In this document: positions 719 to 44,546 of the stretch, one piece after another
How the letters are laid out: the number at the start of each line of letters is the position of its first letter
Numbering within the stretch: position 1 is the first letter of the stretch
IMG/VR virus record: IMGVR_UViG_3300045988_085380
Location: 96,001 to 160,000 of that record
Strand: one strand, 5' to 3'
Length of the DNA: 64,000 bases
From: a virus
Position numbers and translations under genes: made by a program
Notes under the pieces: generated by a model
Told to the model about the DNA's origin: nothing
The model's input: the letters and a program-made list of their open reading frames with translations, nothing else
Database searches by the model: none

Positions 719-1279
719 TTAAAAATCACCTGGGTCATATCCGGTATTAACTCCACCTCTAGTTGTAGACTCTTGTGATACGGACTCTTTAACTTCTTTC
801 TCTAAAGTAATTAATTGCTCATGGACATTACTTAACTAAGCCATCTCCTTCATTACTTTTTCTGCAGAGAAAATAGGTTTACCATTAATATCTCGTTCAT
901 TTAAATCTACAATAGTTTCAAAATAATCTATAAACTAATCTGCTGCCCTTCGAGCTGCTTCCAATAATTTCACAGATTTATTTGATTCTTGTAATTTCCT
1001 ATATTTTCGACAAGCTTCTCTAAATATAGGGTCATTAAACTAAGCTTCTGTCAAACCACTATCAGCTAAAGCTTCTTCATGTCTTTCCTATTCCAAATAA
1101 TTAGAATAAGGAGACTTCCAATCTAAAGCTAAATAAATGTAAGTGAGTTCTTTCATTACTCTAGTCTTAGTTTTCGTTTTATCTCTATCTAGAAGAGCCT
1201 TAAATTCTCTAATTAAAAGAATCTCAGGCTCATTTAACTCTAGAACAAGATGGTCACTATCATAATTAAATACATTCAT
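719..1279 (-). CDS. hypothetical protein, 186 aa, amber-recoded; possible small terminase by position only
   Basis: ATG 1279 to TAA 719; 4 in-frame TAGs, no TAA/TGA (checked). Lies 5 nt upstream of the TerL start. Confidence 0.6.
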
Positions 1280-1308
1280 AAATCATTAACATTAAACATA
1301 TATTTTAA

Positions 1309-2916
1309 TTATCTCTTCTTTTTATAGTTCCAAGGAGCAACTTTGGCGTCATTCTCACCCTTACCTGCACCTGCTTCTTGTCTATTTCTTCTTTGCATTT
1401 CGGCAATTTCCTTAGCTGATTTACCTCTAGTATAAGGATTTCTCTAATAAGACTGTTTTACAGCATCTTGTTCTTTCTTTTTCTTAAAGTTTTTAATAGG
1501 GTCAGATTTTCCTCCATTTTGCATCTTTTTACCTGCACATACTTTACAGATTTCTCCGCCCTTTTTAAAATATACTACTTCTTGACCTTCAGGACACTCT
1601 CCAATAGACTATTTAATATAATCTAGTTTAGCACCGAGTCTTGCTTTACGAGATCCTTTCATTTGTTGAACAATATTTTTTAATAATTGGGCTACTTGAG
1701 CTGCTTGCTAATCACCTTGTTGTGCTACCTACATAATTTTCTAAATAGTCTATTTAGCTTTCTAATCACCCTACATAGCTGCCTAAACTAAAGCTATTGC
1801 CTACTATTCCATTCCCTATTGTCCACTTGCCTATTGTGGCTGTACCATTTGTGCTCCTGCTGCGTATTTATACATTTGTCCTCCCTTTTCAAATTTTAAA
1901 TTAACTAACTAATTATTCTAACTTGGATTATATCCTAAATTAGGTTTAGTTAATTGATACTAACTAGTCTAATTCTGAACAGCATTATTTAACATATTCT
2001 ACTAGATTTTACCATCCCCTATAATTTTACTCACAGATTGAGTATAGTTATCAGTTGTAGGATTATTTAAATATGTTCTTAACTATTTTCTATCTGACCC
2101 TGAATAATCATAAGGATTTATCCCATTTGCTCTCATGCCCTATCTAATATCACCTCTATCAAAATTATGTTTAGTAAGTTCTGAATAGCTATCTAATGGT
2201 CTACTTTCTAAATAATTAGTGACTGCGTTTCCTAAATTAGGAGCTTTATAATTACCGTTATTAATTAAGGTAGATACATTATGAGAATTAGTTATATCAG
2301 TAGTTGAGCCGTTTGGAGTAGATAAAGTTACACTACCATTTCCAACATGAATGCCATACCCAGGAGTTCCTTTAATAGGAGTTGCTTGCTAAGTTGGTGT
2401 AGATGAATTAAACTAGTTACCTCCTCTTTTACTATAAATATTATTTAAATAACTAGCTAAATCTTTATGTTGAGATAAGTAACTTCCTACTTTACTAAAA
2501 TCTCCTGTCTTATAAGCATTTGCTACATCTGCTTGAGATACTCCATTATAATTCCATATTCCTCTACCCTTATTAATCCATGAATTAGATGCAGGAGTTT
2601 TTGGAGCTGACATGGTTCTTGATCTGCCAGTTGTAGAAGATGTACCGGTACGAGATTTACTTGTAGTAGGAGCTTTGGAATTTTTAGTAGCCTATGGTTT
2701 AGTTACATTAGGTTTCCAATTACTTTGACTATAAGGTCTTATTATATAATTCTGATTTCCCTATGTTTGTTCACTAATTCTATTAAAATCTTTACGAGGA
2801 ATCAATTCATCAGAATGATATAAATCTTTTTCTTTAGTACCCGGAGTATAACTTGTATCTACTAAATCTAATTCAACTCTCGGATACACTGGTGTAGTTC
2901 TCCATTTCCATGCCAT
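1309..2916 (-). CDS. hypothetical Q/N-rich protein, 535 aa, amber-recoded
   Basis: ATG 2916 to TAA 1309; 25 in-frame TAGs and no in-frame TAA/TGA (every codon checked). The standard-code ORF 2413..2613 is an internal fragment. Confidence 0.7.
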
Positions 2917-2979
2917 AATTATACAAGTATTAAATTATTCTAGTTAGTTCTATTTATCTAAGTATTCAATTCTCTCTAG

Positions 2980-3636
2980 TTAATCATGCTCTTCTATTTT
3001 AATTGTTTCATTATTAATCCTGTTTGGATATTTTACATAAAAATAATTTCCAAAATTGGGATTTTTTAATCTCTTCTATATAGTATTATACTTAACTCCT
3101 GTTCTTTCTGAAGCTTCTTTTAAAGAATTATAAATAATCCCATCTATACTGATAATAGAATGGTGAGACATACTCTTTCTTTGTTTAGCTGCCTAAGAAA
3201 GTTTTTCTTTATGTTTTTTTGTTAGCGTTCTCCCTCTTTGTCCTTCACTAATATGTTTAGCGTGCTCTTTTGACTTTTTAACGCCTGTAGTAGTTTTGCT
3301 TATCTTCTACTTTGTTTCTTCCGTGTGGTGATAACCTAAAGTACTACCTGCGGCAGGCAAGATATTATATTCAGGTTCTATAATATTTATCCAATACTGC
3401 TCTCTATCAAACAACTAATCTTTAAGATCTTCTGTAATTTCTAGCTCTTCTAAAATTTCGTAATCAAACTATGTTTCTCCATAATCATTCCATGCTTCCT
3501 AAAATCTATAAGAATGGTGTTTATTCTTTCTTAAAGAATTTAAATGCTATAATCTCCTCCTGTTCAAATCTGAAGAACTTCCAATGTAACAATCGCCTGT
3601 TACAGTATTAACAAACCTATAAATCCCTGCTTTCAT
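2980..3636 (-). CDS. GIY-YIG homing endonuclease (I-TevI-like, NUMOD3 repeats plus C-terminal HTH), amber-recoded
   Basis: Translation MKAGIYRFVNTVTGDCYIGSSSDLNRRRLQH...EQYWI...GYHHTEETKQKIS...GRTLTKKHKEKLS...GIIYNSLKEASERTGVKYNTIQKRL; 7 in-frame TAGs; ends in TAA. Confidence 0.85.
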
Positions 3637-6074: not shown

Positions 6075-6791
6075 ATGGAAGATTTAGAAATATTTGGTAT
6101 TCCTTATCTAGCTAAAGGTTCAGGAATACATATTAAAAAGGAAAATAGAGGGAAATTTACTGAGACTAAAAAGAGAACAGGTAAAACTACTGAAGAATTA
6201 ACACATAGTAAAAATCCTCTAACTAGAAAAAGAGCCATATTTGCTTAGAATGCAAAGAAATGGAAACATGAAGATGGTGGTGAAGTACATAAGCCAAATG
6301 GTCATAGATCAATATTAGATAATGGATGGTTTAAAACAAAGGATTTAAAGAATCCTCTTACTTATTAGTAGGGTGGACCTTTTTAGATTAATAACTCATA
6401 GCCTCAAGTGTTATAGAGATATATCTCCTTAGTTAATTAGGGTATTCCACAACAAGCTGCTTTTGATACTTCACATTTATCTATGATAGAAGATGGTAGA
6501 CCTGGAAAATATTATTCATTCGGAAAAAGAGCTTCTAACTTAGGTGGATGGACTAAAAATGCAACTGATAGTCTAACTAATGGAAGATATAAAAATTTAT
6601 AGAATGTCTAGAATTTTGGATAGTTTAAATAGGGATTAAAATAGAAGAACTATAATACAAGACCAGCTTTCTATAATGTAGAAATGAATAGAGGAAGAAA
6701 TAGAGATAAATAGATTATTAATTAGTGGAATAAACAATAGGGTTTAAATCCAATTGCTCAAATATATAATTAGAATATTAACTAGGTATGA
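6075..6791 (+). CDS. hypothetical protein, 238 aa, amber-recoded
   Basis: ATG 6075 to TGA 6789-6791; 17 in-frame TAGs; frame verified across 6360-6440. Confidence 0.65.
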
Positions 6792-6916
6792 AAGATATAA
6801 ATATACAATTGAATGAATTACAAAGATTTTTAGATTTTGTAAATGAGAGAGATAAGCAACTATGGGAAAGATATTTAATTAAATGCACCCAATTAAATGA
6901 CGATATAGAATTATGA
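6788..6916 (+). CDS. small hypothetical protein (42 aa)
   Basis: ATG overlaps the upstream stop (ATGA). Its own stop overlaps the next start. Confidence 0.35.
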   Translation: MKDINIQLNELQRFLDFVNERDKQLWERYLIKCTQLNDDIEL

Positions 6917-7251
6917 AAGTAATCATAAATAATATCTTACCTCCAAAAGGTTTTAAATGTATAAATTTATTTGGTATACTATTCTGTAGAAGAATACTAA
7001 ATAAAATAGATATAAACCATGAAACTATACATACTAAATAGGGATAGGAACTATTGTGGATAGGTTTTTATTTATGGTATATAATAGAATATTTAATTAG
7101 ATTAATTATATACAGAGATACTAAATTAGCTTATAAAAATATCTCTTTTGAAAGAGAAGCTTATTAGAATTAGGGTGATTTAGATTATCTAAGTAATAGA
7201 AAACATTATAGTTGGTTATCTAAGTTAATTAATGAAAGAGTTTTTAATTAA
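6913..7251 (+). CDS. putative small zinc metallopeptidase-like protein (HExxH), amber-recoded
   Basis: ...DINHETIHTKQGQELLW...FEREAYQNQGD...; 4 in-frame TAGs; ends in TAA at 7249. Confidence 0.5.
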
Positions 7252-8008: not shown

Positions 8009-8034
8009 AATACATATCTTTTATAATTAAATTG

Positions 8035-8106
8035 TTCTCTCACAAGGATTCGAACCCTGACTAAAAGATTTAGAGTCTTCTGTGCTAACCATTACACCAT
8101 AAGAGA
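8035..8106 (-). tRNA. amber suppressor tRNA, anticodon CUA, Gln-type body
   Basis: Cloverleaf TCTCTTA-TG-GTGT-AATGGTTA-GCAC-A-GAAGA-CTCTAAA-TCTTT-TAGT-CAGGG-TTCGAAT-CCTTG-TGAGAGA-A. D-arm and T-loop match the phage tRNA-Gln(UUG) at 18775. Confidence 0.85.
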
Positions 8107-9615: not shown

Positions 9616-9939
9616 ATGATTCCAAACATTATTAAGACCATTATTAAGGATATTCCTTCAGTTGCTAACTCTTCTATTCGTCTTATAAACGAAAACAGAG
9701 ATAGAGGTCAATTCACCTTTGTAACTACTGATGCAAAGGCAGTTTCTATTGTGCTAACTAATGTACCAAAAGGTGCTCCGAAATCTATCTCTGCTCATAA
9801 AAAGCAGATGATTGCAGATTTCCTCTATTTAGTTGCTGTTGAGAGCGACCATATGTGTACCTCAGAAGGCAAAAAGTACACTCTTGCGGATATAGCAAAA
9901 GAGATTGACCTTATCATCTCACAAGATGTTGTCTTGTAG
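9616..9939 (+). CDS. hypothetical protein (TAG-terminated; 14 further sense codons before an in-frame TAA)
   Basis: ORF preceded by AACACATTACCA. Confidence 0.55.
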   Translation: MIPNIIKTIIKDIPSVANSSIRLINENRDRGQFTFVTTDAKAVSIVLTNVPKGAPKSISAHKKQMIADFLYLVAVESDHMCTSEGKKYTLADIAKEIDLIISQDVVL

Positions 9940-10041
9940 GATATGGAAGAAAATGGTGAATATCTCATTATTGAGGATTAATTCTCACGACCCAAGCAAG
10001 TCGTTAAACTGCTTATTAACAATATTAAATACAATAGAATT

Positions 10042-11943: not shown

Positions 11944-12446
11944 GCGGATAACACAATCGAGACGGAGACAAGGTGGCGCTGGCATGGGAGAGTGGTTTTT
12001 ACTACTTTCCCATTACAAGTCAATTTTCAAACATTGGTGGCATAAGTAACTCACACTTTAATGTTTTCTTGAGATATAAACTATAGTCATAATTAAATCA
12101 GAATTAAAAACCTTTTAGTGTATAGGTTAACTAATAATATGATGTAACTTCAAAATTAAAAAACCACCTTAGTATATAGCTAAATAGTAGAACGGGTGTT
12201 TATCCTTTTATAGGTTTGTACTAGGCAGTATTTAGCGCGTCGTAACACATTGAAAGTATTACTGGTAGAACTAAAGTATTAAAAAGACTTTAGAAGTAAG
12301 AAAGCGTAAAGACAGTTAGTAGAGGGGATAGTAAGTGTTGAAGAACTCTACATTATTTATTAAGCAATAACCTCGGTGCTTAAAGAGAGGCTTCCCTTAA
12401 ACAAGGAGTAAGAGAAATTGTTTAGTCAGCCAGGAGACGTTAAAAT

Positions 12447-12507
12447 TCATACTGATGAGACTGGACGAAATACCTAGTAACAGTTGTACGTTATTAGGTA
12501 TCTATGA
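12447..12507 (+). ncRNA. hammerhead-like core (type I topology) with defective stem II
   Basis: TCATA-CTGATGA-GACTGGAC-GAAA-TACCTA...TAGGTA-TC-TATGA. Stems I and III pair; stem II cannot form. Confidence 0.2.
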
Positions 12508-16145: not shown

Positions 16146-16475
16146 ATGATTATCGATAAAGATAATTTCGAATTACTAATTGAAGCTTTAGATTTCTGGG
16201 TTAAGGATAGTGTCCTTCCAGTAATTCCTAAGAATAGAATAAGTGTTAGAAAAACCAATACTTGGTCTACTAACTATTTATGCTGTACTAAGGAATGGAA
16301 GAAGAGATACAAAACTAACCCAGCTAAAGCTTTGTGCGAGTTAGTAATAGACCATTATAAATATATTTATATTAGAAACTATCCAATTATTGAGTTAGTT
16401 AATAATTATAAATATCTTTACTATTGGTTAATAGGAAATGAGTATAAACAAAATAGAGAAACACCTCTATTGTAG
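16146..16475 (+). CDS. hypothetical protein (ends TAG-TAA)
   Basis: Intact 109-aa ORF. Confidence 0.55.
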   Translation: MIIDKDNFELLIEALDFWVKDSVLPVIPKNRISVRKTNTWSTNYLCCTKEWKKRYKTNPAKALCELVIDHYKYIYIRNYPIIELVNNYKYLYYWLIGNEYKQNRETPLL

Positions 16476-16489
16476 TAATTAATTAAATT

Positions 16490-17082: not shown

Positions 17083-17156
17083 GCTTCCATAGCTCAACTG
17101 AATAGAGCAACAGCCTTCTAAGCTGTGGGTTTCCAGTTTGAATCTGGATGGAAGCA
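17083..17156 (+). tRNA. tRNA-Arg(UCU)
   Basis: GCTTCCA-TA-GCTC-AACTGAATA-GAGC-A-ACAGC-CTTCTAA-GCTGT-GGGTT-TCCAG-TTTGAAT-CTGGA-TGGAAGC-A. Confidence 0.9.
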
Positions 17157-17238
17157 CAACTACAAGTTACAACAAGGATATTTAAAATATTTTCAAGTTG
17201 TAATAATTGTGAATTAAAATAGGTCGACAAAATATAAT

Positions 17239-17269
17239 TCTACAATGGTTTGTGATAAATAGTTGTAAG
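17239..17269 (+). promoter_or_regulatory. conserved-loop hairpin (loop TGGTTTGTGATAAATAG)
   Basis: CTACAA / TTGTAAG imperfect stem; no tRNA follows this copy. Confidence 0.45.
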
Positions 17270-17871
17270 TTTCTTCAAAGATAAGTTTAGTGGATAACTA
17301 GAGTATTATTTAGGATGTACTATTTAATATATCTAGCACTCAAAGTCCACTAAACTTTCTTACTTAAATTGATATTTATGTTAGTTATATTGATACTCTC
17401 CTCTTAGAGGAAGTATAGGACATTATCTATCTAATCTATCAGCTGTGAAGAGTTGATTGGAAGAGAAGTTTAGTTTCAAAATATTGCGCAACTCCCATTA
17501 AATGGGATTAATATGAAACAATTACTAGTTAAGATAGCTAATTAATTAGTAAGCTGTAATCAATATAACCTTTTAAATATAGTGATAGAAGCAGGGGTTC
17601 GAATCCTTTAATTTTTGTAATTAGTTAGCTATCTAATTATGGAGATTTCGTCTAAATTTGGGAAGCAACGGGAGAAAAATGATTCTCTTAGTGCCTCACG
17701 TATGTAGAGTTTCTACAATCACCAGCCATGATGTGAGAGGACGCTATCACTTTAATTTGAATTTATTGTATTTAATCATATTTTGTTAGTGTGTTATGCC
17801 TATTTGGGCAAAGTTCTTACCACTATTCTACTTATAGAAATGTGGTGTGTCTAAGTAAATCTTAGACATAT

Positions 17872-17944
17872 GGAGATATAGCTTAGAAGGTCAGAGCGCG
17901 GGACTGAAAATCCCGAGATTGTGGTTCAATTCCACGTATCTCCA
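17872..17944 (+). tRNA. tRNA-Phe(GAA)
   Basis: GGAGATA...CGGGA-CTGAAAA-TCCCG...TGTGG-TTCAATT-CCACG-TATCTCC-A. Confidence 0.9.
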
Positions 17945-17948
17945 CTAT

Positions 17949-18038
17949 ATACGGATGCCTGAGTGGTCGAAAGGGTAGGTCTCCAAAACCTATAGAGACG
18001 AAAGTTGAACAGCGTAGGTTCGAATCCTACTCCGTGTG
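17949..18038 (+). tRNA. class II (long variable arm) tRNA with anticodon CCA; isotype uncertain
   Basis: ATACGGA-TG-CCTG-AGTGGTCGA-AAGG-G-TAGGT-CTCCAAA-ACCTA-(21-nt variable region)-GTAGG-TTCGAAT-CCTAC-TCCGTGT-G. Confidence 0.6.
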
Positions 18039-18253
18039 CAAATAAAAGGTGAAGTTGGGGTATCTTAGGATAGAATGAGCCTATAAGTCTTCAATGAGTC
18101 TAGTTAAATAAACTAGGCTCTACTCCCTGGCGTCATTTAAATCAGCTCTCTAAGCTTTAAGGTGAAGCACGAACCTTTTAAGTTCGGGAAGACAGGTCAG
18201 TACTGTCAGGAAGCACTCTGTATTTTATAAAAGTTAGAAGATTAACTTTATAA

Positions 18254-18282
18254 CTCTACCGGTTTGTGATAAATAGGTAGAG
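18254..18282 (+). promoter_or_regulatory. conserved-loop hairpin 4 nt 5' of tRNA-Asn
   Basis: CTCTACC-ggtttgtgataaata-GGTAGAG. Confidence 0.5.
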
Positions 18283-18286
18283 ACTT

Positions 18287-18360
18287 GTACCCTTAGTTCA
18301 GTTGGTTAGAACGCAAAACTGTTAATTTTGAAGTCGTAGGTTCAAATCCTACAGGGTACG
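18287..18360 (+). tRNA. tRNA-Asn(GUU)
   Basis: GTACCCT...CAAAA-CTGTTAA-TTTTG...GTAGG-TTCAAAT-CCTAC-AGGGTAC-G. Confidence 0.9.
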
Positions 18361-18399
18361 CAAATGTAAATTTTAAATGATTATAGAAATTATCTACAG

Positions 18400-18428
18400 G
18401 ATTCTCAGTCTGTGATAGATAGAGAATC
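18400..18428 (+). promoter_or_regulatory. conserved-loop hairpin 5 nt 5' of tRNA-Glu
   Basis: GATTCTC-agtctgtgatagata-GAGAATC. Confidence 0.5.
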
Positions 18429-18433
18429 TACTT

Positions 18434-18509
18434 GGCACTATCGTCTAGCTGGTCAGGACGGGATTCTTTCAAGATCCAAAGGCGATTTCGAGCATCGCTA
18501 GTGCTACCA
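18434..18509 (+). tRNA. tRNA-Glu(UUC), CCA encoded
   Basis: GGCACTA-TC-GTCT...GGAC-G-GGATT-CTTTCAA-GATCC...GCGAT-TTCGAGC-ATCGC-TAGTGCT-A-CCA. Confidence 0.85.
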
Positions 18510-18589
18510 TTTCAACCTTTTTTATAAAACTAATACGATTAATGTTTGAAATATAAAGTTGGTGGACTTTATAACGTTAAAGAGTTGTT

Positions 18590-18619
18590 AGGCTTCTGGT
18601 CTGTGAAGATAGGAAGCTT
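18590..18619 (+). promoter_or_regulatory. conserved-loop hairpin 3 nt 5' of tRNA-Ser
   Basis: AGGCTTC-tggtctgtgaagatag-GAAGCTT. Confidence 0.5.
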
Positions 18620-18622
18620 TAT

Positions 18623-18710
18623 GGAGAAATGGCTGAGTGGTCTAAAGCGGCACCCTGCTAAGGTGTTAGTCATATTACATGGCTCGGAGGTTCGAATCCT
18701 TCTTTCTCCG
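18623..18710 (+). tRNA. tRNA-Ser(GCU)
   Basis: GGAGAAA...CACC-CTGCTAA-GGTG, long variable arm, GGAGG-TTCGAAT-CCTTC-TTTCTCC-G. Confidence 0.9.
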
Positions 18711-18744
18711 CAACATTTATGACAAATTGTGAACTTGTAGTTGG

Positions 18745-18772
18745 AAAATATGGTTCGTGAGAATAGTATTTT
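18745..18772 (+). promoter_or_regulatory. conserved-loop hairpin 2 nt 5' of tRNA-Gln
   Basis: AAAATA-tggttcgtgagaatag-TATTTT. Confidence 0.45.
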
Positions 18773-18774
18773 AT

Positions 18775-18845
18775 TGGACTATGGTGTAATGGTAGCACTA
18801 CAGATTTTGGTTCTGTCAGTCCCAGTTCGAATCTGGGTAGTCCAA
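18775..18845 (+). tRNA. tRNA-Gln(UUG)
   Basis: TGGACTA-TG-GTGT-AATGGTA-GCAC-T-ACAGA-TTTTGGT-TCTGT-CAGT-CCCAG-TTCGAAT-CTGGG-TAGTCCA-A. Confidence 0.9.
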
Positions 18846-19010
18846 CAATTAAAATAGGTACTAAACAACTCTCAGTAACTCTATTAAATAGCGTAATTAC
18901 CTTAAAATTAATCATTTGGGTTAGAAAGAGAAAGAACGTTAGATAGCTGAGGACAATGGAATAGTTTAAATATAACCAGTGAAAATCGCCTATTATTTAA
19001 ATAGATTATT

Positions 19011-19435: not shown

Positions 19436-19795
19436 ATGGAAATAAAAACAATACAAATTGATTCTGATACATTTCTTGTATTTAAAGGTATTGAATACAG
19501 ACAAATAAATGTAGAGGATATAGTTAGTTTAGAGACATTAGATAAATATGTCTTAATAATAACTAAGGATAATAGAAAGTTTACTATTGGTTGTTCTTTA
19601 ACTAGTATTACTAAGAAATTATGTCTTGATTATATAGTAGTAACTAAAGGTTTCTTAATTAATAAGAAATATATATCTGAATTAACTAGGAAACCTGATG
19701 ATAAAGATAAGTATATTTTAGTACTTAATGATTCCTATCACACTACTAGAGAAGTATCTTTATATATTGCAAAAAATATTTTAGAACAATTATAA
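19436..19795 (+). CDS. LytTR-type DNA-binding domain protein
   Basis: 119 aa; pattern IQIDSDTFLVFKG...INVEDIVSLETLDKYVLIITKDNRKFTIGCSLTSITKKL...GFLINKKYISEL...L resembles the LytTR domain. Confidence 0.5.
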   Translation: MEIKTIQIDSDTFLVFKGIEYRQINVEDIVSLETLDKYVLIITKDNRKFTIGCSLTSITKKLCLDYIVVTKGFLINKKYISELTRKPDDKDKYILVLNDSYHTTREVSLYIAKNILEQL

Positions 19796-19796
19796 T

Positions 19797-19916
19797 ATGA
19801 AGAAAATAGTATTAAAAGTAACAGTGAAAGTTCCAGATGATTATGTACTAGATGATCCATCTTGGTTATTAGAGAACATTGGTATTGGATATGACTATGA
19901 TGTTGAACGTATTTAA
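19797..19916 (+). CDS. small hypothetical protein (39 aa)
   Basis: ATG 1 nt after the upstream stop; followed by a terminator. Confidence 0.35.
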   Translation: MKKIVLKVTVKVPDDYVLDDPSWLLENIGIGYDYDVERI

Positions 19917-19973
19917 TTTGTTTAAATCATTATACAATAAAGACGACATGTTGGTATTTACAAAAATATTGTT

Positions 19974-20007
19974 GGCAACTAGCAGATAATTAGTTGCTCC
20001 TTTTTTT
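19974..20007 (+). terminator. intrinsic terminator
   Basis: GGCAACTA-gcagataat-TAGTTGCTCC followed by TTTTTTT. Confidence 0.75.
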
Positions 20008-20061
20008 GTCTAAAGGTTGGCAGTATATTCCACCAGACATTAAACTCTAAAACTGCCAAAT

Positions 20062-20717
20062 CGCTTAGTGGTGAAACTGGGATACACGAGGGACTTATTA
20101 GAGTACCAGTAATGGTGAATTTGAGTGCCCTATGAGAAATCATAGGAGTAGAATCTCCCTAATTAAACAAGTTAATTGTAATTATATTAGATTTTTATAG
20201 TATAATCTATTAGCTTGCAACAGAAGCCTCACTTATGGTGACATAAGTTTTGGTGACGGCGAACTAAATTAAATAAAATAAGAGTGAGGGGCAACAGACA
20301 TACCTCTTAATGTATCGGTGGAGTGGCGAAGACAATAGGCATATTGTAGACTCTTATTTTGTTTATAAATGGCGTAGAGACTATATAGGAGATACCTAAG
20401 TTAGGAATTGTATATTTAAAATTAAACTGGCAAGATTCGCAGAAATAAGGGGAGCAGACTGCTATTAGAGGTTAGATTAAACCTTATATACTTACTTGCA
20501 AGATTTCTAATATGGTAGTAAAATAGTCCAGACCACAATAACTTATATGGGAGGTATTTCACAATAATTATTACTAAATGTGTTAAGTACTGTAACTCCA
20601 TGCTAGCGTTGAGTGTAATAGGTAGGACGTAAATAAGTTAGCTTGTGTAAAAGCAAGTGTGGTAGGAAAATCCCTTGGTCAGGAATGACCGTACGGGTTC
20701 GAATCCCGTCTAAGCGA
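20062..20717 (+). tRNA. tRNA-Leu(UAA) split by a group I intron (exons 20062..20096 and 20667..20717)
   Basis: Spliced sequence: CGCTTAG-TG-GTGA-AACTGGGAT-ACAC-G-AGGGA-CTT|AAAA-TCCCT-TGGTCAGGAATGACCGT-ACGGG-TTCGAAT-CCCGT-CTAAGCG-A. Perfect 7-bp acceptor stem; class II variable arm. Confidence 0.85.
20097..20666 (+). ncRNA. group I intron (IC3-like core), ORF-less, 570 nt
   Basis: Inserted between U34 and A35. The exon U pairs with an intron G (ACTT/GAGT P1) and the intron ends in G. GTAGAGACTA (20374-83) and ACCTAAG (20394-400) match the Azoarcus/Anabaena tRNA-intron core as I recall it. GAAA-capped hairpin CCTATGA-gaaa-TCATAGG. Confidence 0.75.
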
Positions 20718-20834
20718 CATAATTGATTATCTATGTTTTTTTGAAATTGAAATTATTCATAATTACTGTGAATTTGTGAAAATTTATAAGTAATGTAAAA
20801 TTTTCGTTTTGTAGAAGATTTTATCTTTCATTTT

Positions 20835-20868
20835 AAACTCATATTGCTTGTGAAAGTAGTATGAGTTT
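20835..20868 (+). promoter_or_regulatory. conserved-loop hairpin upstream of the recoded gene 20954
   Basis: AAACTCATA-ttgcttgtgaaagtag-TATGAGTTT. Confidence 0.45.
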
Positions 20869-20953
20869 TAATTTATTTGTAATTTCTATGTCATAGACTT
20901 ATAATAAATAAGTGATTAATCAATTAAAAATAATAACTTAAATATTAATATTT

Positions 20954-22015
20954 ATGACAGGAAATTTTGAAAATAGTTATCTTGGAAACATTATTGGAGT
21001 ACAAAGATAGAAAATGAAGGATTTTACTAATTCGAGATTAAAAAAGGTAAAATAGATGAATTAGAGAGCTACATAGGGTTCTAAATAGCTTTAGATTAGA
21101 AGAAAACAGCAAAATAATTATGATGCCAGATTAAGAGCTAAATATGGTGCTATGTATGACCCTAACAAAGTTCGTCAATAGCAGTAGGAATTAGTTAAAG
21201 CTGGTTATAATATTGCAGTAGATGGAGATTGGGGTGTAAAAAGTAAATAGGCATGGCATGATTATTAGTTAAAAAAGAATTAGTAGACTACCAAAGATAC
21301 CGATATGTTTACTAGTTTAACTAATTGGATTAATAAGTTTAAGCCAAAACCTTATCCATTATCTACTAACAAGAATGAATAGGCTATTATAGACCGTAAA
21401 GTACATAGCGGTGTTACTGAACCTTATTGGATACTAGATAGAAATAATCATCAATTAAAACACATGCAAGGAAACAAAGCCTTAGCACAATTTGATGTTA
21501 TGACAGGTTTATCCAATGACTAGGATGGATATAATTTTTGGGATAGTTATAAAACTGATCCAGTATACTAGAAAAATAAAAACTTTTATAATGGAAGTAA
21601 ACAAGCCTAGGTAACACCTGCTGGTATTTTTACTTTATCTTCTTCTAGTTATGAAGGACGCCCAGCATTTAGATGGAATGAGGGAAGTAGAGATAATACA
21701 AACACTAAGTAGAAAACTTCTGTTTTATTTCATATTATGCCTAAGAGCAGATAGGCTGATTTTAAAAATGGAATTAGAAATAAATCTTATGGTTGTGTTA
21801 ATTTGCCTACAGATGCACTTAACTATATGATAAATAATAACGCAGTAGGAGATTCTATATATTCTCTGCCTGTTAGATAGGGTAATTATATATATGAGTC
21901 TGAGGAAGAAGGACATCCATTAAAAGTACATTATGGAAATGCTCCTCAAAGAGTTTAGGGAAAACATTATGCAAATAAATATGATTTAAATTTAAATTAT
22001 AATAAAGGATATTAA
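20954..22015 (+). CDS. PG-binding plus L,D-transpeptidase (YkuD)-like cell-wall enzyme, amber-recoded (20 in-frame TAGs)
   Basis: ELVKAGYNIAVDGDWGVKSKQAWHDYQ (PG_binding_1-like) and TPAGIF...FHIMP...KSYGCVNLPTDALNYM...GDSIY (YkuD His/Cys motif). ATG 20954, TAA 22013; 354 codons. Confidence 0.75.
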
Positions 22016-22022
22016 TTAGATT

Positions 22023-22628
22023 ATGAAACTATTATTTAGATTATTAATAATATTATTAGTTACATCTTGTTCTAATAATGTTACAAAGGGAAATATTACA
22101 GATTGTGATAGTTTTCCTGCAGATCCAATTGCTTATATTTATTTACAACCTTATGATGATTTTACACAACAGGAAGCTACAAAGCTAGCCTCTAAAATCA
22201 CAAAGGGATTAAGTAAGGTATACGGAGGTGATTGGACTAATGTAAAAGTATTAGCTAATAAGGACTTACCAGAAAAAGCTTATTACAAGCCTCGGAATAG
22301 GTACTTAGCTAATGAGTTATTAAAAAATCTTAATATTAATAAGGAGCAATCCTATATAATAGGTTTAACTCATAAAGATATATCATACAAAATACACGGT
22401 CAAACTAACTATGGAATAATGGGATTAACTCCTTTGAATAGTAATAAATCTATAGTTAGTGATTATAGAACACATGATTTAGTTGCTGTAATAGTGCATG
22501 AATTTGGTCATGGATTTTATGGGGCAAAACATTGTACTAATCCTAAATGTATAATGTGTGATTATCAAAAACACAAAGGAAAGCCTTTTATATATAAATT
22601 ATGTAAAGAGCACTCCTTTATGAATTAA
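22023..22628 (+). CDS. lipoprotein, archaemetzincin-like (M54-type) zinc metallopeptidase
   Basis: Lipobox LLVTSCS; motif HEFGHGFYGAKHCTNPKCIMC. Confidence 0.6.
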   Translation: MKLLFRLLIILLVTSCSNNVTKGNITDCDSFPADPIAYIYLQPYDDFTQQEATKLASKITKGLSKVYGGDWTNVKVLANKDLPEKAYYKPRNRYLANELLKNLNINKEQSYIIGLTHKDISYKIHGQTNYGIMGLTPLNSNKSIVSDYRTHDLVAVIVHEFGHGFYGAKHCTNPKCIMCDYQKHKGKPFIYKLCKEHSFMN

Positions 22629-22770
22629 GGCTATATAGCAATACTAGTATAATAGCATGTCCAGATGCTTAATCGCTGGAATAGGCTGTCTGAGGCTATC
22701 CGGTTATGGCAGTATGTGGTGGCACATAATCAACTAACTAGGTTTATGTATTTAGTAAGCGTAAATACTC

Positions 22771-22787
22771 CTACGTGTGATTCGTAG
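22771..22787 (+). promoter_or_regulatory. short hairpin CTACG-tgtgatt-CGTAG 2 nt 5' of a tRNA-like gene
   Basis: GTGAT-containing loop. Confidence 0.35.
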
Positions 22788-22789
22788 TG

Positions 22790-22861
22790 GAATGCGTAGC
22801 TCAATTGGATAGAGCACCGGATGTAATCCGGAGGTTGGCAGTTCGAGTCTGTCCATATTTA
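22790..22861 (+). tRNA. non-canonical tRNA-like gene (possible anticodon GUA; anticodon arm 2 nt short; one acceptor mismatch)
   Basis: GAATGCG-TA-GCTC-AATTGGATA-GAGC-A-CCGG-ATGTAAT-CCGG-A-GGTT-GGCAG-TTCGAGT-CTGTC-CATATTT-A. Confidence 0.4.
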
Positions 22862-23101
22862 CCCCATTATTATTCATATTCGATGTTTTATACTCATAAG
22901 TTTGAAAACTTTCTAAGTTTTCGGTAAAGGGTTCTGTTTGTGAAAATGGAATTATTTATCTGTTTTTGGTTATGAATATATGTGAGAACTTTAATAAGTC
23001 GGAGGACTTACAAAACTCAAAAAGTGTGTCTTAGTGGCAAGTGCACGCCCTGCTAGCAATTAGGGAGGAGAGGAAGTAGCGACCCTCAGGCACTTTTATA
23101 T

Positions 23102-23178
23102 CCGTGTTTAACTCAGTTGGTCAGAGTGCTCAGCTTATACCTAAGTGGTCGGGGGTTCAAGTCCCTCAACACGGACCA
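23102..23178 (+). tRNA. tRNA-Ile(UAU), CCA encoded
   Basis: CCGTGTT-TA-ACTC-AGTTGGTCA-GAGT-G-CTCAG-CTTATAC-CTAAG-TGGTC-GGGGG-TTCAAGT-CCCTC-AACACGG-A-CCA (one C.A mismatch in the anticodon stem). Confidence 0.75.
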
Positions 23179-23256
23179 TTTCTTTTATCATATTATTATT
23201 ATTTTGGAGAGTCTAATTAGTTAATCTAGTTAGGCTCTTTTATTGTTTAATTAAAT

Positions 23257-23268
23257 AACACATTAACA
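23257..23268 (+). promoter_or_regulatory. AACACATTAACA leader motif
   Basis: Exact 12-mer 1 nt before the ATG at 23270. Confidence 0.5.
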
Positions 23269-23269
23269 T

Positions 23270-23488
23270 ATGGAAAAAGTAAACTTAAAAGTAAATGACA
23301 TCTTTTCCCAAGCGTGGAAGGGATGTCAAAAACCTATGTGGTTTAAAGTTCTTAATATAGATAGAACTAATAACAGCATAGAAGTAGAGTGCCATTCATT
23401 TGATGGTCTTAATGTATTTCCTGAAGTTTGGTCTTTAGATTCTACAGAAATAGGATTTGAGATTGGTGATTATAAAGTAGTTAAATAA
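23270..23488 (+). CDS. hypothetical protein
   Basis: Intact 72-aa ORF. Confidence 0.55.
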   Translation: MEKVNLKVNDIFSQAWKGCQKPMWFKVLNIDRTNNSIEVECHSFDGLNVFPEVWSLDSTEIGFEIGDYKVVK

Positions 23489-24378: not shown

Positions 24379-24969
24379 ATGTGTTGGACTTGTAATATTA
24401 ATAAATTAAAAGCTCAAACAGCTAAAGAAGATATTAATGTATATAAAGTAGTTAAAAAAGCTACTAAAAAGTCTTGTGTATCTCTATTTATGGATTATAC
24501 TTATTATTCAAAGGATATACAACCTTCTTTAACTTTAGGAGTAATAATTGAATCTAGTTCAATTTTTGCAAAAATTACAGAAGGTTATCATAGTTACTCT
24601 TCTGTAAATTTCGTATGCGATTCAATAGTGGAAGGAATCCTTGGAGGTTATGTAAAAACTATACAATGTGGAAATCGTAAGGGAACATTTAGAGTAGACA
24701 ATTCTTTATATTTAGCTGCATTTATAATTCCTGTAGGTTCTGTATATTTTACAAATGAAGAAGGTGTAATAGTATCTAATAAAATGGCAAAAATATTTAA
24801 ATGTAAGGGCATTCCTTATTATATTACAGGATGTTCTGACAAGCTAACAGCATCAGTAGTTGCAATTAAAAATCGCTGGGGAGTTACTCCAGGTGATTTA
24901 GTTGAGGTTGAATCTATTGATGATACAAATGCTCATATAGTAGATAAGTCTAAATTCTATTCTGAGTAG
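24379..24969 (+). CDS. MCW-family paralogue 3 with about 50-aa C-terminal extension (ends TAG-TAA)
   Basis: MCW..., VYKV, EGYHSY, AFIIPVGSVY...IVSNKM, then a unique tail. Confidence 0.7.
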   Translation: MCWTCNINKLKAQTAKEDINVYKVVKKATKKSCVSLFMDYTYYSKDIQPSLTLGVIIESSSIFAKITEGYHSYSSVNFVCDSIVEGILGGYVKTIQCGNRKGTFRVDNSLYLAAFIIPVGSVYFTNEEGVIVSNKMAKIFKCKGIPYYITGCSDKLTASVVAIKNRWGVTPGDLVEVESIDDTNAHIVDKSKFYSE

Positions 24970-24984
24970 TAACAATATTTATCT

Positions 24985-40637: not shown

Positions 40638-41279
40638 ATGAACAAACTTGAAAAATGGCTATGGACTAATTGTGAAATAAAAGATAGTGCACAAGCTACT
40701 AATTCTCTGTATTTTATATATGGGATATTAGAAATTCGTTATTCAGATCATCAAGCACATAATAGTACAGGAGATTTACAAATTATAAGGTCATCTGTTT
40801 ATGAATCTAAAGTATACGCAGTTATATTAAAAGGCTGTTCTAAAATTATGATAATTAATGCAACTCAAATTATAGAGTTTATAAAGCATTTTCGCATAGT
40901 TAAAGAACTAAATACTCTTAACACTATTAAGCTTGTTCCTTCTAATAAAGAGATTAATAACTTAGTACTTCCTGGATGCCTTTTTGAACCTTATAAAGTA
41001 AATTCTAAACATGTAAATAAGATATTTTTTAAGGGCAATTATAGATGGTCTAATACAGAAGTTAAATGTCTTAAACAAGCAGTATTATGCTATTTTAAGC
41101 AGTCTTGTGGATTTAATACAATATTCACCCACTATTTAAAGGAGAATACAGTAAGTTTTATTGAAGCAATAAACTTATATAAAATAATAGTATGTGACAA
41201 TAAGCAAACTTTTACTATTATAACTATAGATAAAGCAATAAAATATATAAATAGCATTAATGATAGTTCAACAAGTTAG
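40638..41279 (+). CDS. hypothetical protein
   Basis: ATG 40638 preferred over the TTG at 40605, which lies inside the terminator. Confidence 0.55.
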   Translation: MNKLEKWLWTNCEIKDSAQATNSLYFIYGILEIRYSDHQAHNSTGDLQIIRSSVYESKVYAVILKGCSKIMIINATQIIEFIKHFRIVKELNTLNTIKLVPSNKEINNLVLPGCLFEPYKVNSKHVNKIFFKGNYRWSNTEVKCLKQAVLCYFKQSCGFNTIFTHYLKENTVSFIEAINLYKIIVCDNKQTFTIITIDKAIKYINSINDSSTS

Positions 41280-41574
41280 ATGTGTTAATTATAATCTGTA
41301 TATTACAGGTTTAGTCCCCACTTCAGAATGGGAAGGCACAATAGTTTATAGAACTTATAAAGATGGACAGATAAATAAGTTTGTAGAGAAGTATGTTAAA
41401 GATACTCAACATAATAATTGTGTCACTACTCTGACTAGATTTATACCTATTGATTATCTTTACAACTTTGTATATAATAATGTAGAAGTTAAGGGAAAAT
41501 CTTTTAAATTACAAGAAGTTCTTATAGATAATTTAGATACGCCAGAAGAACCATTAGGGGGTAATTTCGGATGA
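41260..41574 (+). CDS. hypothetical protein
   Basis: Intact 104-aa ORF. Confidence 0.5.
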   Translation: MIVQQVRCVNYNLYITGLVPTSEWEGTIVYRTYKDGQINKFVEKYVKDTQHNNCVTTLTRFIPIDYLYNFVYNNVEVKGKSFKLQEVLIDNLDTPEEPLGGNFG

Positions 41575-43491: not shown

Positions 43492-43878
43492 ATGTTAGAG
43501 CCAAAGAAAATTAACCTAGAGAATGCTTATAGAGGTAGCTTAGAAGTACAAAAAAGAGATATTCTGAGTAACTTCCGTTTTGAACAAGTAGCTATGATTA
43601 TGGCTTCCCCATGTTTACCTATTTATAAGAACGAAGAGGATAAGCCAGAAATCATTGGATATGAACCTTGGAAGATATTTACAGGGTATGAACTCAGAGT
43701 ACCTAGTATTTACGATTTGTATTGTTGTGCAGAAAGATTACTTGATGATGTAATTAAAGAAGTACATAAAAATCCTAAAAGTAATTATCAAAGTATAGCT
43801 TCAGGTCCATTTAAAGTAACTTATTTATATGGTAATTTAACTCTTGATTTCGTAGTAGAATCATGGGGAAATTATTAA
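43492..43878 (+). CDS. hypothetical protein
   Basis: Intact 128-aa ORF. Confidence 0.55.
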   Translation: MLEPKKINLENAYRGSLEVQKRDILSNFRFEQVAMIMASPCLPIYKNEEDKPEIIGYEPWKIFTGYELRVPSIYDLYCCAERLLDDVIKEVHKNPKSNYQSIASGPFKVTYLYGNLTLDFVVESWGNY

Positions 43879-44282
43879 CCATATATACAGATGGAGCTTG
43901 TCAAGTATCTACAGGTAATGGAGGTGTTGGAGTTGTATTTATTAAAGATAATAAAGTAATTTATCAATTTAATAAACACTTCAAAAATGTAACTAATAAT
44001 CAAATGGAAATAATGGCGGTTATTTATGCTCTACATGCTATTAGTACAAATTTTGATTCTATTACTGTAGTATCTGATTCACAATACGTTTTAGGATGTA
44101 TAAATAAAGGATGGAAACGCAAGAAGAATCAGAATTATTGGCAGTTATTTGATAAAGTATATAATATAGCTAAAAAGTTTTGTTCAGATATAAAATTTGA
44201 ATGGACTAAAGGACATAATATAGATGAGTATAATAATCTAGCAGATAGATTGGCTGTGGAAGCTAGTCACTTTGCAGATTAG
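43863..44282 (+). CDS. rnhA: ribonuclease HI (TAG-terminated)
   Basis: IYTDGAC, NNQMEIMAV, VSDSQYV, KGHNIDEYNNLADRLA (DEDD plus H). Confidence 0.85.
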   Translation: MGKLLTIYTDGACQVSTGNGGVGVVFIKDNKVIYQFNKHFKNVTNNQMEIMAVIYALHAISTNFDSITVVSDSQYVLGCINKGWKRKKNQNYWQLFDKVYNIAKKFCSDIKFEWTKGHNIDEYNNLADRLAVEASHFAD

Positions 44283-44546
44283 TTAGATTACAATTAAATA
44301 TTCTAATTAATTTGGAAATGAAAGCAAAGCATAAGCGTGAGTGGTTACAGATGAAGCAGAATTGGTGGTCAAAATTACCAGCTTCAGTACAGAAGGCGAC
44401 AACTAAACCAGGTTCAGTAAAGACTCGATGATTATCTTAATTATTGTTTTAATATGTCTTATATTATTAAATCCTTATATAGACGTACAACAAGATAAGA
44501 TAATTATTTGGTATAATTGGTTTACTGAAAGAAAATATTATATTTT

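Follow-up and report, generated by a model that had tools for sequence, protein, structure and literature searches.

A TAG-recoded YkuD-fold gene and its TAG-free archaemetzincin-like lipoprotein partner in an exchangeable cassette of a probable crAss-like phage

A 64,000-nucleotide (nt) stretch of the virus record IMGVR_UViG_3300045988_085380 (positions 96,001 to 160,000 of that record), here called the window, carries two adjacent, co-oriented genes that appear to be written in different genetic codes. The first (20954..22015, + strand) encodes a protein of 353 amino acids (aa) with an N-terminal module and a YkuD-fold catalytic domain, its 20 in-frame TAG codons being read as Gln. The second (22023..22628, +) starts 7 nt (22016-22022) past the stop codon of the first and encodes a lipoprotein with an archaemetzincin (M54-like) fold, without a single TAG. 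Stop-codon timing is a published model, and what is new is the pairing of a TAG-rich YkuD gene with a TAG-free lipoprotein gene. With moderate confidence, we favor the explanation that a two-code phage makes the YkuD enzyme late, gated by its TAG codons, and the lipoprotein early, and that the pair belongs to an exchangeable cassette.

The recoded open reading frame (ORF) runs from ATG 20954 to TAA 22013-22015 and comprises 354 codons, with 20 TAG, no TGA, and only the terminal TAA, exactly reproducing the count in a first-pass annotation of this DNA. Given the base composition (31% G+C), 353 codons without TAA or TGA are expected by chance with a P of ~1e-10. The TAGs occupy codons 19, 34, 37, 41, 45, 47, 76, 78, 99, 105, 110, 111, 143, 190, 206, 219, 253, 267, 309, and 335, so that 12 of the 20 lie within the first 111 codons, and TAG accounts for 67% of the Gln codons in the gene. 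The TAG = Gln translation has 76 database homologs at an E of ≤0.001; the best 15 are 87-96% identical, 14 of these 15 are full-length, and the family resides on contigs of 127-192 kb. Standard-code translation fails at their loci too, as it should if these genes are recoded. Comparison with the copy in the related locus L002 gives a ratio of nonsynonymous to synonymous substitution rates (dN/dS) of 0.195; of the 20 TAGs, 19 are kept, the exception being TAG37, which is CAG in L002. The homologs, the dN/dS value, and the conserved TAGs together argue for a real gene under selection. The same protein gave no match in a tblastn search of 50,697 GenBank phage records, a result that is uninformative since TAG breaks the translation of the targets.

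The identity of the inserted residue was assessed by codon alignment with L006 (44% identity), L036 (57% over the catalytic part), and the N-terminal modules of L034 and L035. TAG19, 37, 45, 76, and 105 of the window lie opposite CAG or CAA in these diverged relatives. Conversely, where a relative has TAG opposite a window sense codon, that codon is CAA or CAG in 11 of 23 cases, compared with sense-coded Gln at ~3% of the protein. A suppressor tRNA(CUA) (8034..8106, −), required to read the 20 TAGs, is nearest to the phage's own tRNA-Gln(UUG) (18775-18846), with an alignment score of 21 versus at most 12 to any other tRNA; the two have a nearly identical D-arm and the U1:A72 pair in common. 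ARAGORN calls this tRNA “Pyl,” which is merely its default label for the anticodon. Because TAG interchanges with CAA and CAG among homologs and the suppressor most resembles tRNA-Gln, we assign TAG to Gln, an assignment validated by proteomics in Crassvirales according to a statement in PMC11210395. In-frame TAGs equivalent to Gln, a phage-encoded suppressor, and standard-code neighbors with TAG as a stop are thus all found, and these comparisons indicate that the recoded ORF is a functional gene under selection. Code-15-aware gene calling is evidently needed even inside the “standard-code” regions of crAss-like genomes.

Three diverged phage lineages (the window with L002-L005, L006 with L007, and L036 with L037) have a YkuD gene followed by a lipoprotein gene, and in them the YkuD gene carries 20 or 19, 18, and 10 TAGs, respectively. 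The lipoprotein genes of the same three lineages contain no internal TAG against a total of 18 sense Gln codons, an outcome with a P of ~2.5e-7 were TAG used at the rate of their YkuD partners (0.57). The L006 lipoprotein gene terminates on TAG. Because one transition suffices to turn CAR into TAG and the change is common in the YkuD genes, this codon usage implies that the lipoprotein would be kept TAG-free by selection for translation before the switch, while TAG is still a stop. Recoding as a phage lysis timer is a widely cited idea, and we are aware of no experiment that has tested it directly. The locus is a compact natural test case for the timer hypothesis, with adjacent co-oriented genes in different codes in three lineages, and TAG/CAG swaps in either gene should shift timing and fitness predictably.

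The recoded gene stands alone in its surroundings. Its flanking genes (19436-19795 and 22023-22628) have a TAG count of 0 each, tRNA genes are present to its left (17083-18846) and right (22790-23178), and the closest other TAG-rich ORFs stop at 7251, 13.7 kb upstream. The first-pass annotation had described an isolated gene between tRNA clusters, with TAG-free neighbors, about 13 kb from the structural block. All of this holds, although the upstream recoded block is only putatively structural, its contents being a gene like that of a crAss001 cargo protein, a gene for a GIY-YIG endonuclease, and unknowns. Elsewhere in the window, TAG-rich frames bounded solely by TAA or TGA are found at 719-3636 (−) and 6075-7251 (+). 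The substantial ORFs at 7.6-20.9 kb and 22.0-62 kb are without TAG or have it only at the extreme end, and in ORFs of at least 100 aa between 22 and 62 kb, TAG occurs only at or adjoining the ends, where it serves as a stop and a backup stop is close by. Since the region downstream codes for helicases, primase, exonuclease, and ATPases, we count it as an early or replication region in the standard code. Early standard-code genes that stop on TAG include those at 16146-16478, 24379-24972, 40638-41288, 43863-44297, 60075-61604, and 9616-9981, with a backup TAA or TGA 0-13 codons past the TAG; such tandem stops are in keeping with read-through being tolerated late, after the suppressor has become active.

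The recoded protein consists of two parts. The N-terminal module (aa 1-111; 20954..21287, +) is conserved and comprises a long helix and a PG_binding_1-like domain; it is common to proteins with at least three other kinds of C-terminal domain, making at least four types in all. The catalytic domain (aa ~133-353; 21350..22012, +) matches Pfam YkuD (PF03734) at 27.2 bits versus a gathering threshold of 23.4 (E = 6.8e-6), with aa 159-302 covering profile positions 4-144 of 146. PG_binding_1 (PF01471) scores 16.5 bits versus a threshold of 23. Both domains had been predicted from the letters alone, with these two profiles named as the check. The YkuD assignment was borne out, whereas the other survives as a PG_binding_1-like module rather than a Pfam match. 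A relationship of the N-terminal module to PG_binding_1 is nevertheless supported by matches between aa 27-109 and PHROG endolysin families (E = 5e-5) and by its alignment to the peptidoglycan (PG)-binding domain of 4xxt. The same alignment was used to read the LQ and FQ motif positions, at which TAGs had been said to replace conserved Gln residues: TAG105 does fall on the conserved Gln of FQ, but the LQ position is a sense codon, Q77, between TAG76 and TAG78. The peptides of interest were located at aa 79-105 (ELVKAGYNIAVDGDWGVKSKqAWHDYq), 259-263 (FHIMP), and 278-285 (SYGCVNLP).

An AlphaFold (AF2) model was obtained for P0001, a homolog 96% identical to the window protein, with a predicted local distance difference test (pLDDT) score of 74.6. 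In the model, a long helix at the N terminus and a small helical domain are joined by a disordered linker (aa 111-130) to a beta-rich domain that is predicted well, the catalytic part having pLDDT values mostly of 76-95. Foldseek returned 50 PDB matches at an E of ≤1e-3, nearly all of them YkuD-fold L,D-transpeptidases or L,D-carboxypeptidases; the best (E of ~2e-5) are the L,D-carboxypeptidase Bd1075, the PG-binding and YkuD protein 4xxt, and LdtMt2, and Csd6 is the 25th (E = 2.5e-4). The canonical YkuD motif is H-x(16-19)-[ST]-H-G-C-h-N. The window protein reads H-x17-S-Y-G-C-V-N, with Tyr for the second His, and its His260 and Cys281 are invariant over 16 homologs. Hydropathy analysis found neither a signal peptide nor a hydrophobic segment in the protein. 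The Pfam match and the predicted model indicate a divergent YkuD fold with an intact Cys/His pair.

The product of 22023..22628 contains HEFGHGFYGAKHCTNPKCIMC and begins with a signal peptide and lipobox (LLVTSC). Its lipoprotein features are MKLLFRLLIILLVTSC, a hydrophobic segment at aa 1-18, and Cys16, conserved in at least 90% of the family; the Pfam LPAM_1 match is weak. A profile of the family matches the archaemetzincins 2x7m, 4axq, and 3zvs with E values of 1e-18 to 7e-16, and a model of the lipoprotein (pLDDT of 88.8) matches archaemetzincin folds with template modeling (TM) scores of 0.64-0.78, including 2x7m in Foldseek (E = 2e-10, TM of 0.64/0.70). These results agree with the first-pass call of a TAG-free, archaemetzincin-type lipoprotein. 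The zinc motif, which contains the HEFGH...H site, reads HEFGHGFYGAKHC-TNPK-C-I-M-C...C194, with conserved His, Glu, and Met and four Cys; relative to the HExxHxxGxxxC/C-x4-C-x-M pattern, it has one residue extra and no CxxC. The NCBIfam archmetzin profile NF033823 scores 66.9 bits versus a cut-off of 145, and PF07998 does not match the window lipoprotein at an E of ≤1, being carried only by the distant homologs P0131-P0137. Because of this sub-cut-off score and the missing Pfam M54 match, we describe the predicted protein as an archaemetzincin-like relative and not as a curated M54 member. The family was absent from the 50,697 GenBank phage records at an E of ≤1e-3 (tblastn), and its nearest cellular homologs are from Prevotellaceae.

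The catalytic domain and the partner gene together behave as a swappable unit, with blastn boundaries at 21288..22622 (+). The related locus L034 is homologous to the window up to 21287, the end of the N-terminal module, and again from 22623, and its LytTR neighbor is 97% identical to that of the window. Between these junctions, L034 has a different C-terminal domain (12 TAGs in the whole gene) followed by a TAG-free YkuD_2 gene. The cassette-less relative MT835539.1 is without the entire 20870-22622 by blastn. It retains a terminator-like hairpin (20835..20868, +) directly left of the indel boundary and, on the right, an invariant 27-nt motif, TAAGGCTATATAGCAATACTAGTATAA (22626..22652, +), which occurs once in the window and marks the right boundary of every cassette variant, so that the right junction is identical throughout. 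The motif lies at the opening of a stretch between the cassette and tRNA-Tyr (22623-22790, +) that is conserved in L034, L002, and L006 and that may be a promoter or a recombination site; the conserved 22629-22792 folds no better than shuffled sequence (z = 0.43). A transposon-like cassette was considered and rejected, as the flanks have neither direct nor inverted repeats. Exchange probably proceeds by homologous recombination, with the N-terminal module or the hairpin as the left-hand site and the invariant motif as the right-hand one.

Two further loci carry a damaged YkuD gene. In L040, an IMG/VR contig of 224.7 kb, codons ~15-158 are deleted at an 8-nt microhomology, TTATTGGA (~2900-3600), with a frameshift, and the lipoprotein gene downstream is intact. 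In L010 (3484-4612), part of the chromosome of Prevotellamassilia timonensis, the YkuD gene is reduced to a truncated fragment; the lipoprotein gene after it is intact, and the pair adjoins groES/groEL and a HigA-like gene. With the cassette absent from MT835539.1 and its YkuD gene broken by a frameshift in L040 and by truncation in L010, the gene is dispensable and is not the sole or essential endolysin of the phage. The alternative C-terminal domains (P0030, P0046/P0057, and P0044 types) have no sequence match in Pfam, NCBIfam, PHROG, or the PDB; their motifs suggest papain-like Cys/His peptidases. The comparisons indicate that the catalytic domain and its partner are accessory and exchangeable as a cassette, and that the site they occupy is a hot spot of recombination.

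The composition of the cassette resembles that of a host gene cluster. In two Prevotellaceae genomes (L020, 3163-7833; L022, 3175-7290), a homolog of the lipoprotein belongs to a conserved co-oriented cluster in the order DUF4846 (CHAP-like), archaemetzincin-like (AMZ) lipoprotein, small secreted protein, YkuD_2, an extra gene (L020), LytTR, and NAGPA-like. The AMZ cluster occurs in Xylanibacter ruminicola and other Prevotellaceae or Bacteroidaceae, and within 4 kb of 25 cellular AMZ loci, YkuD_2 is found in 5 and LytTR in 6. In the phage, a TAG-free LytTR-domain gene (19436..19795, +) is the conserved left neighbor of the locus and is followed by either YkuD and AMZ or another domain and YkuD_2, so that the cassette families seem to mirror the Prevotellaceae envelope cluster. 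This correspondence, together with the truncated pair in the Prevotellamassilia chromosome, makes exchange of the cassette between phage and host likely. The locus ties together two poorly understood families, phage YkuD-fold enzymes and bacterial AMZ lipoproteins, points to the conserved Prevotellaceae envelope cluster as the source of both, and offers a first lead on the function of archaemetzincin-like proteins in Bacteroidota.

The phage itself looks like a Zeta-type crAss-like phage of ~180 kb, with a host probably in Prevotellaceae. Zeta crAss-like phages have genomes of 155-189 kb, CTA suppressors, and predicted Prevotella hosts (PMC12386605), and we observed related contigs of 176-192 kb, many tRNAs, and a CTA suppressor. 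The window DNA matches IAS virus and other crAss-like phages, and 6075-6791 matches the crAss001 cargo protein gp45.

Several other features of the window were recorded. In the small recoded island, the gene at 6075-6791 (+) encodes 238 aa with 17 TAGs (77% of its Gln codons), and aa 14-70 of its product match crAss001 cargo protein 1 gp45 (7qog, E = 2e-6). Beside it, 6913-7251 (+) encodes a 112-aa HExxH membrane protein with 4 TAGs that matches phrog_15610 “protease.” A GIY-YIG homing endonuclease gene (2980-3636, −) contains 7 in-frame TAGs, paralleling the recoded intron endonuclease of Borges et al. A tRNA-Leu(UAA) gene (20062-20718, +) is split at the classical 34/35 anticodon position by an intron of 570 nt and ends 235 nt before the ATG of the recoded gene; the standard tRNA scan missed it, and only the ARAGORN intron search recognized it. 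The intron is 86-93% identical to an insert that splits the IAS virus DNA primase and to Lak phage segments. An Rfam scan of 19700-23400 found no families other than tRNAs and did not recognize the intron. Sigma-70 promoter matches were no commoner than in shuffled sequence, the tool being one without Bacteroidota promoters. A RAGATH-1 hammerhead ribozyme lies at 12423-12507 (+; 70.6 bits versus the Rfam gathering threshold of 56.3), and a phage-encoded transfer-messenger RNA (tmRNA), with tag peptide GEVNNTSVSYAIAA, lies at 30716-31049 (+). A tmRNA deserves note in a genome in which stops are deliberately read through.

Under the favored explanation, the TAG at codon 19 would leave the YkuD protein incomplete until the Gln-type tRNA(CUA) of the phage suppresses TAG, and expression would be confined to the late, code-15 phase even though the gene lies among early and replication genes. 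The protein would reach the periplasm and the wall only upon membrane breach at lysis. Its most likely activity would be cleavage or exchange at the L,D bonds (meso-diaminopimelic acid [mDAP]-D-Ala or mDAP-mDAP) of stem peptides, or else the release of PG-linked proteins. The zinc-protease-like partner, as the selection against TAG suggests, would be made and, by the Sec/lipoprotein pathway, reach the envelope ahead of the code switch. The timer reading, also offered in the first-pass annotation, fits these data and is the model of Borges et al. applied to a novel pair of genes. In that work, recoding shows a bias toward late genes and lysis genes, the latter being the most recoded, and some clades scatter recoded modules over the genome (bioRxiv 10.1101/2021.08.26.457843). 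Among lytic domains, YkuD is listed but rare (PMC8310338, PMC5017753), with 10 PhaLP entries (PMC8310338), and YkuD enzymes may act as L,D-carboxypeptidases, L,D-endopeptidases, or PG-protein detachers (PMC12729407). A lytic role is further suggested by the PHROG endolysin matches and by the N-terminal module, one protein of which, bearing another C-terminal domain, sits among Amidase_3 and lipoprotein-GH25 genes.

The arrangement in the distant lineage L036 (3890-7763) also resembles a lysis cassette. The PG-binding module is missing from its YkuD gene, and a weakly hydrophobic segment rich in Gly is present; upstream are a TAG-free OmpA-like gene and a TAG-rich gene for a 294-aa protein with weakly hydrophobic Gly-rich segments, and downstream is a TAG-free lipoprotein gene. 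A signal-arrest-release endolysin reading of the L036-type YkuD proteins was not relied on, as hydropathy supports a membrane anchor weakly.

A number of observations weigh against a lytic, late-acting YkuD enzyme. PF01471 stays below threshold, the catalytic motif has SYGC instead of SHGC, and the structural model is of moderate confidence and of a homologue instead of the window protein. The best BFVD fold matches are viral proteins of 920-1122 aa, possibly virion proteins, and the usual role of YkuD enzymes is transpeptidation, the family being mainly synthetic (PMC12729407). Neither a holin nor a spanin was found next to the recoded gene in the window. As a canonical endolysin, the gene also falls short in having no adjoining recoded membrane protein in the window and in being absent from MT835539.1, frameshifted in L040, truncated in L010, and swapped in L034.

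Some of these observations favor a non-lytic cell wall remodeler, that is, a true L,D-transpeptidase or exchange enzyme from the host envelope cluster that would alter PG late without breaking the wall, for example by priming PG for another lysin, changing outer membrane (OM) tethering, or excluding other phages. The synthetic bent of the family, the dispensability of the cassette, and the adjacency of Prevotellaceae AMZ lipoprotein genes to YkuD_2 and LytTR, suggestive of a housekeeping envelope partnership, all accord with such a role, and there is precedent for priming in a Salmonella phage-type muramidase that needs LdtD-modified PG (PMC12729407). We nevertheless consider a remodeler unlikely: an N-terminal module on several unrelated C-terminal domains, near Amidase_3 and GH25, is a pattern typical of lysins, a protein without a signal peptide could not reach PG in an intact cell, and the top structural matches include the hydrolytic L,D-carboxypeptidases Bd1075 and Csd6.

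A PG enzyme packaged in or ejected from the virion for entry, and recoded simply as a late virion component, is very unlikely. The cargo protein match in the other recoded island and the large viral BFVD matches point toward it, and the long N-terminal helix could serve packaging or assembly. However, the family profile has no match to the solved crAss001 virion proteins, the surroundings of the gene are the early/tRNA region and a lipoprotein gene rather than virion genes, and relatives have lost or frameshifted it. A decaying pseudogene, a chance open frame, or a TAG decoded as something other than Gln (e.g., pyrrolysine), for which twenty in-frame standard stops and the name “Pyl” might speak, is effectively refuted by the improbably long frame without TAA or TGA, the dN/dS value, dozens of full-length homologs, the specific swapping of TAG with CAA/CAG, the Gln-like suppressor, and the proteomics cited in PMC11210395.

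Returning to the favored explanation, it can be extended to a dual-code, two-step disruption of the envelope, in which the lipoprotein, made under the standard code of the host and pre-positioned in the periplasm or OM, and the TAG-gated YkuD enzyme, appearing only after the suppressor tRNA has switched the code, would together cut PG stem peptides or OM-wall tethers. We regard this extension as quite improbable. If true, Bacteroidota phages would have a late step of lysis that is independent of spanins and was borrowed from the host AMZ/YkuD_2/LytTR cluster.

The components of the locus can be compared with several known systems. The predicted lipoprotein and the archaemetzincins (MEROPS M54; AmzA 2x7m, 3zvs, and 4axq) have in common the fold, a putative HExxH...H zinc site, the Met-turn, and four Cys. 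The former differs in being a signal-peptide-bearing lipoprotein of bacteria or phages, in the extra zinc-motif residue and other Cys spacing, and in its sub-cut-off NCBIfam score. With the YkuD-fold hydrolases (Bd1075, Csd6, the type VI secretion system effectors Tlde1/Tae5, and DpaA/LdtF), the recoded protein shares the fold and a predicted Cys/His catalytic pair, and they provide a precedent for cutting rather than building and for a partner gene encoded directly downstream. Their identity to the window protein is only 13-18%, however, and its partner is an intact metalloprotease-fold lipoprotein and no known immunity protein.

Modular Gram-negative endolysins of the KZ144/EL188 type likewise have an N-terminal PG-binding-like domain before a C-terminal catalytic domain, no signal peptide, and C-terminal domains shuffled on a constant binding module, and YkuD lysins are listed in PhaLP. 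Here, in contrast, PG_binding_1 is sub-threshold, a divergent YkuD domain replaces the glycosidase, no holin adjoins, the gene is dispensable in relatives, and lytic activity is putative. A parallel in genetic code is with the recoded gut phages of Borges et al. (crAss-like, Lak, Agate, Jade, and others), which also have TAG in a subset of genes, a tRNA(CUA), standard-code replication genes, a cell wall enzyme among the most TAG-rich genes, and a recoded homing endonuclease. Their crAss-like phages are described as having a single, contiguous recoded unit of structural and lysis genes, whereas the gene described here stands alone, 13.7 kb away among early genes and tRNAs, and, unlike those units, it has a TAG-free partner directly downstream, placing two codes on one co-oriented pair.

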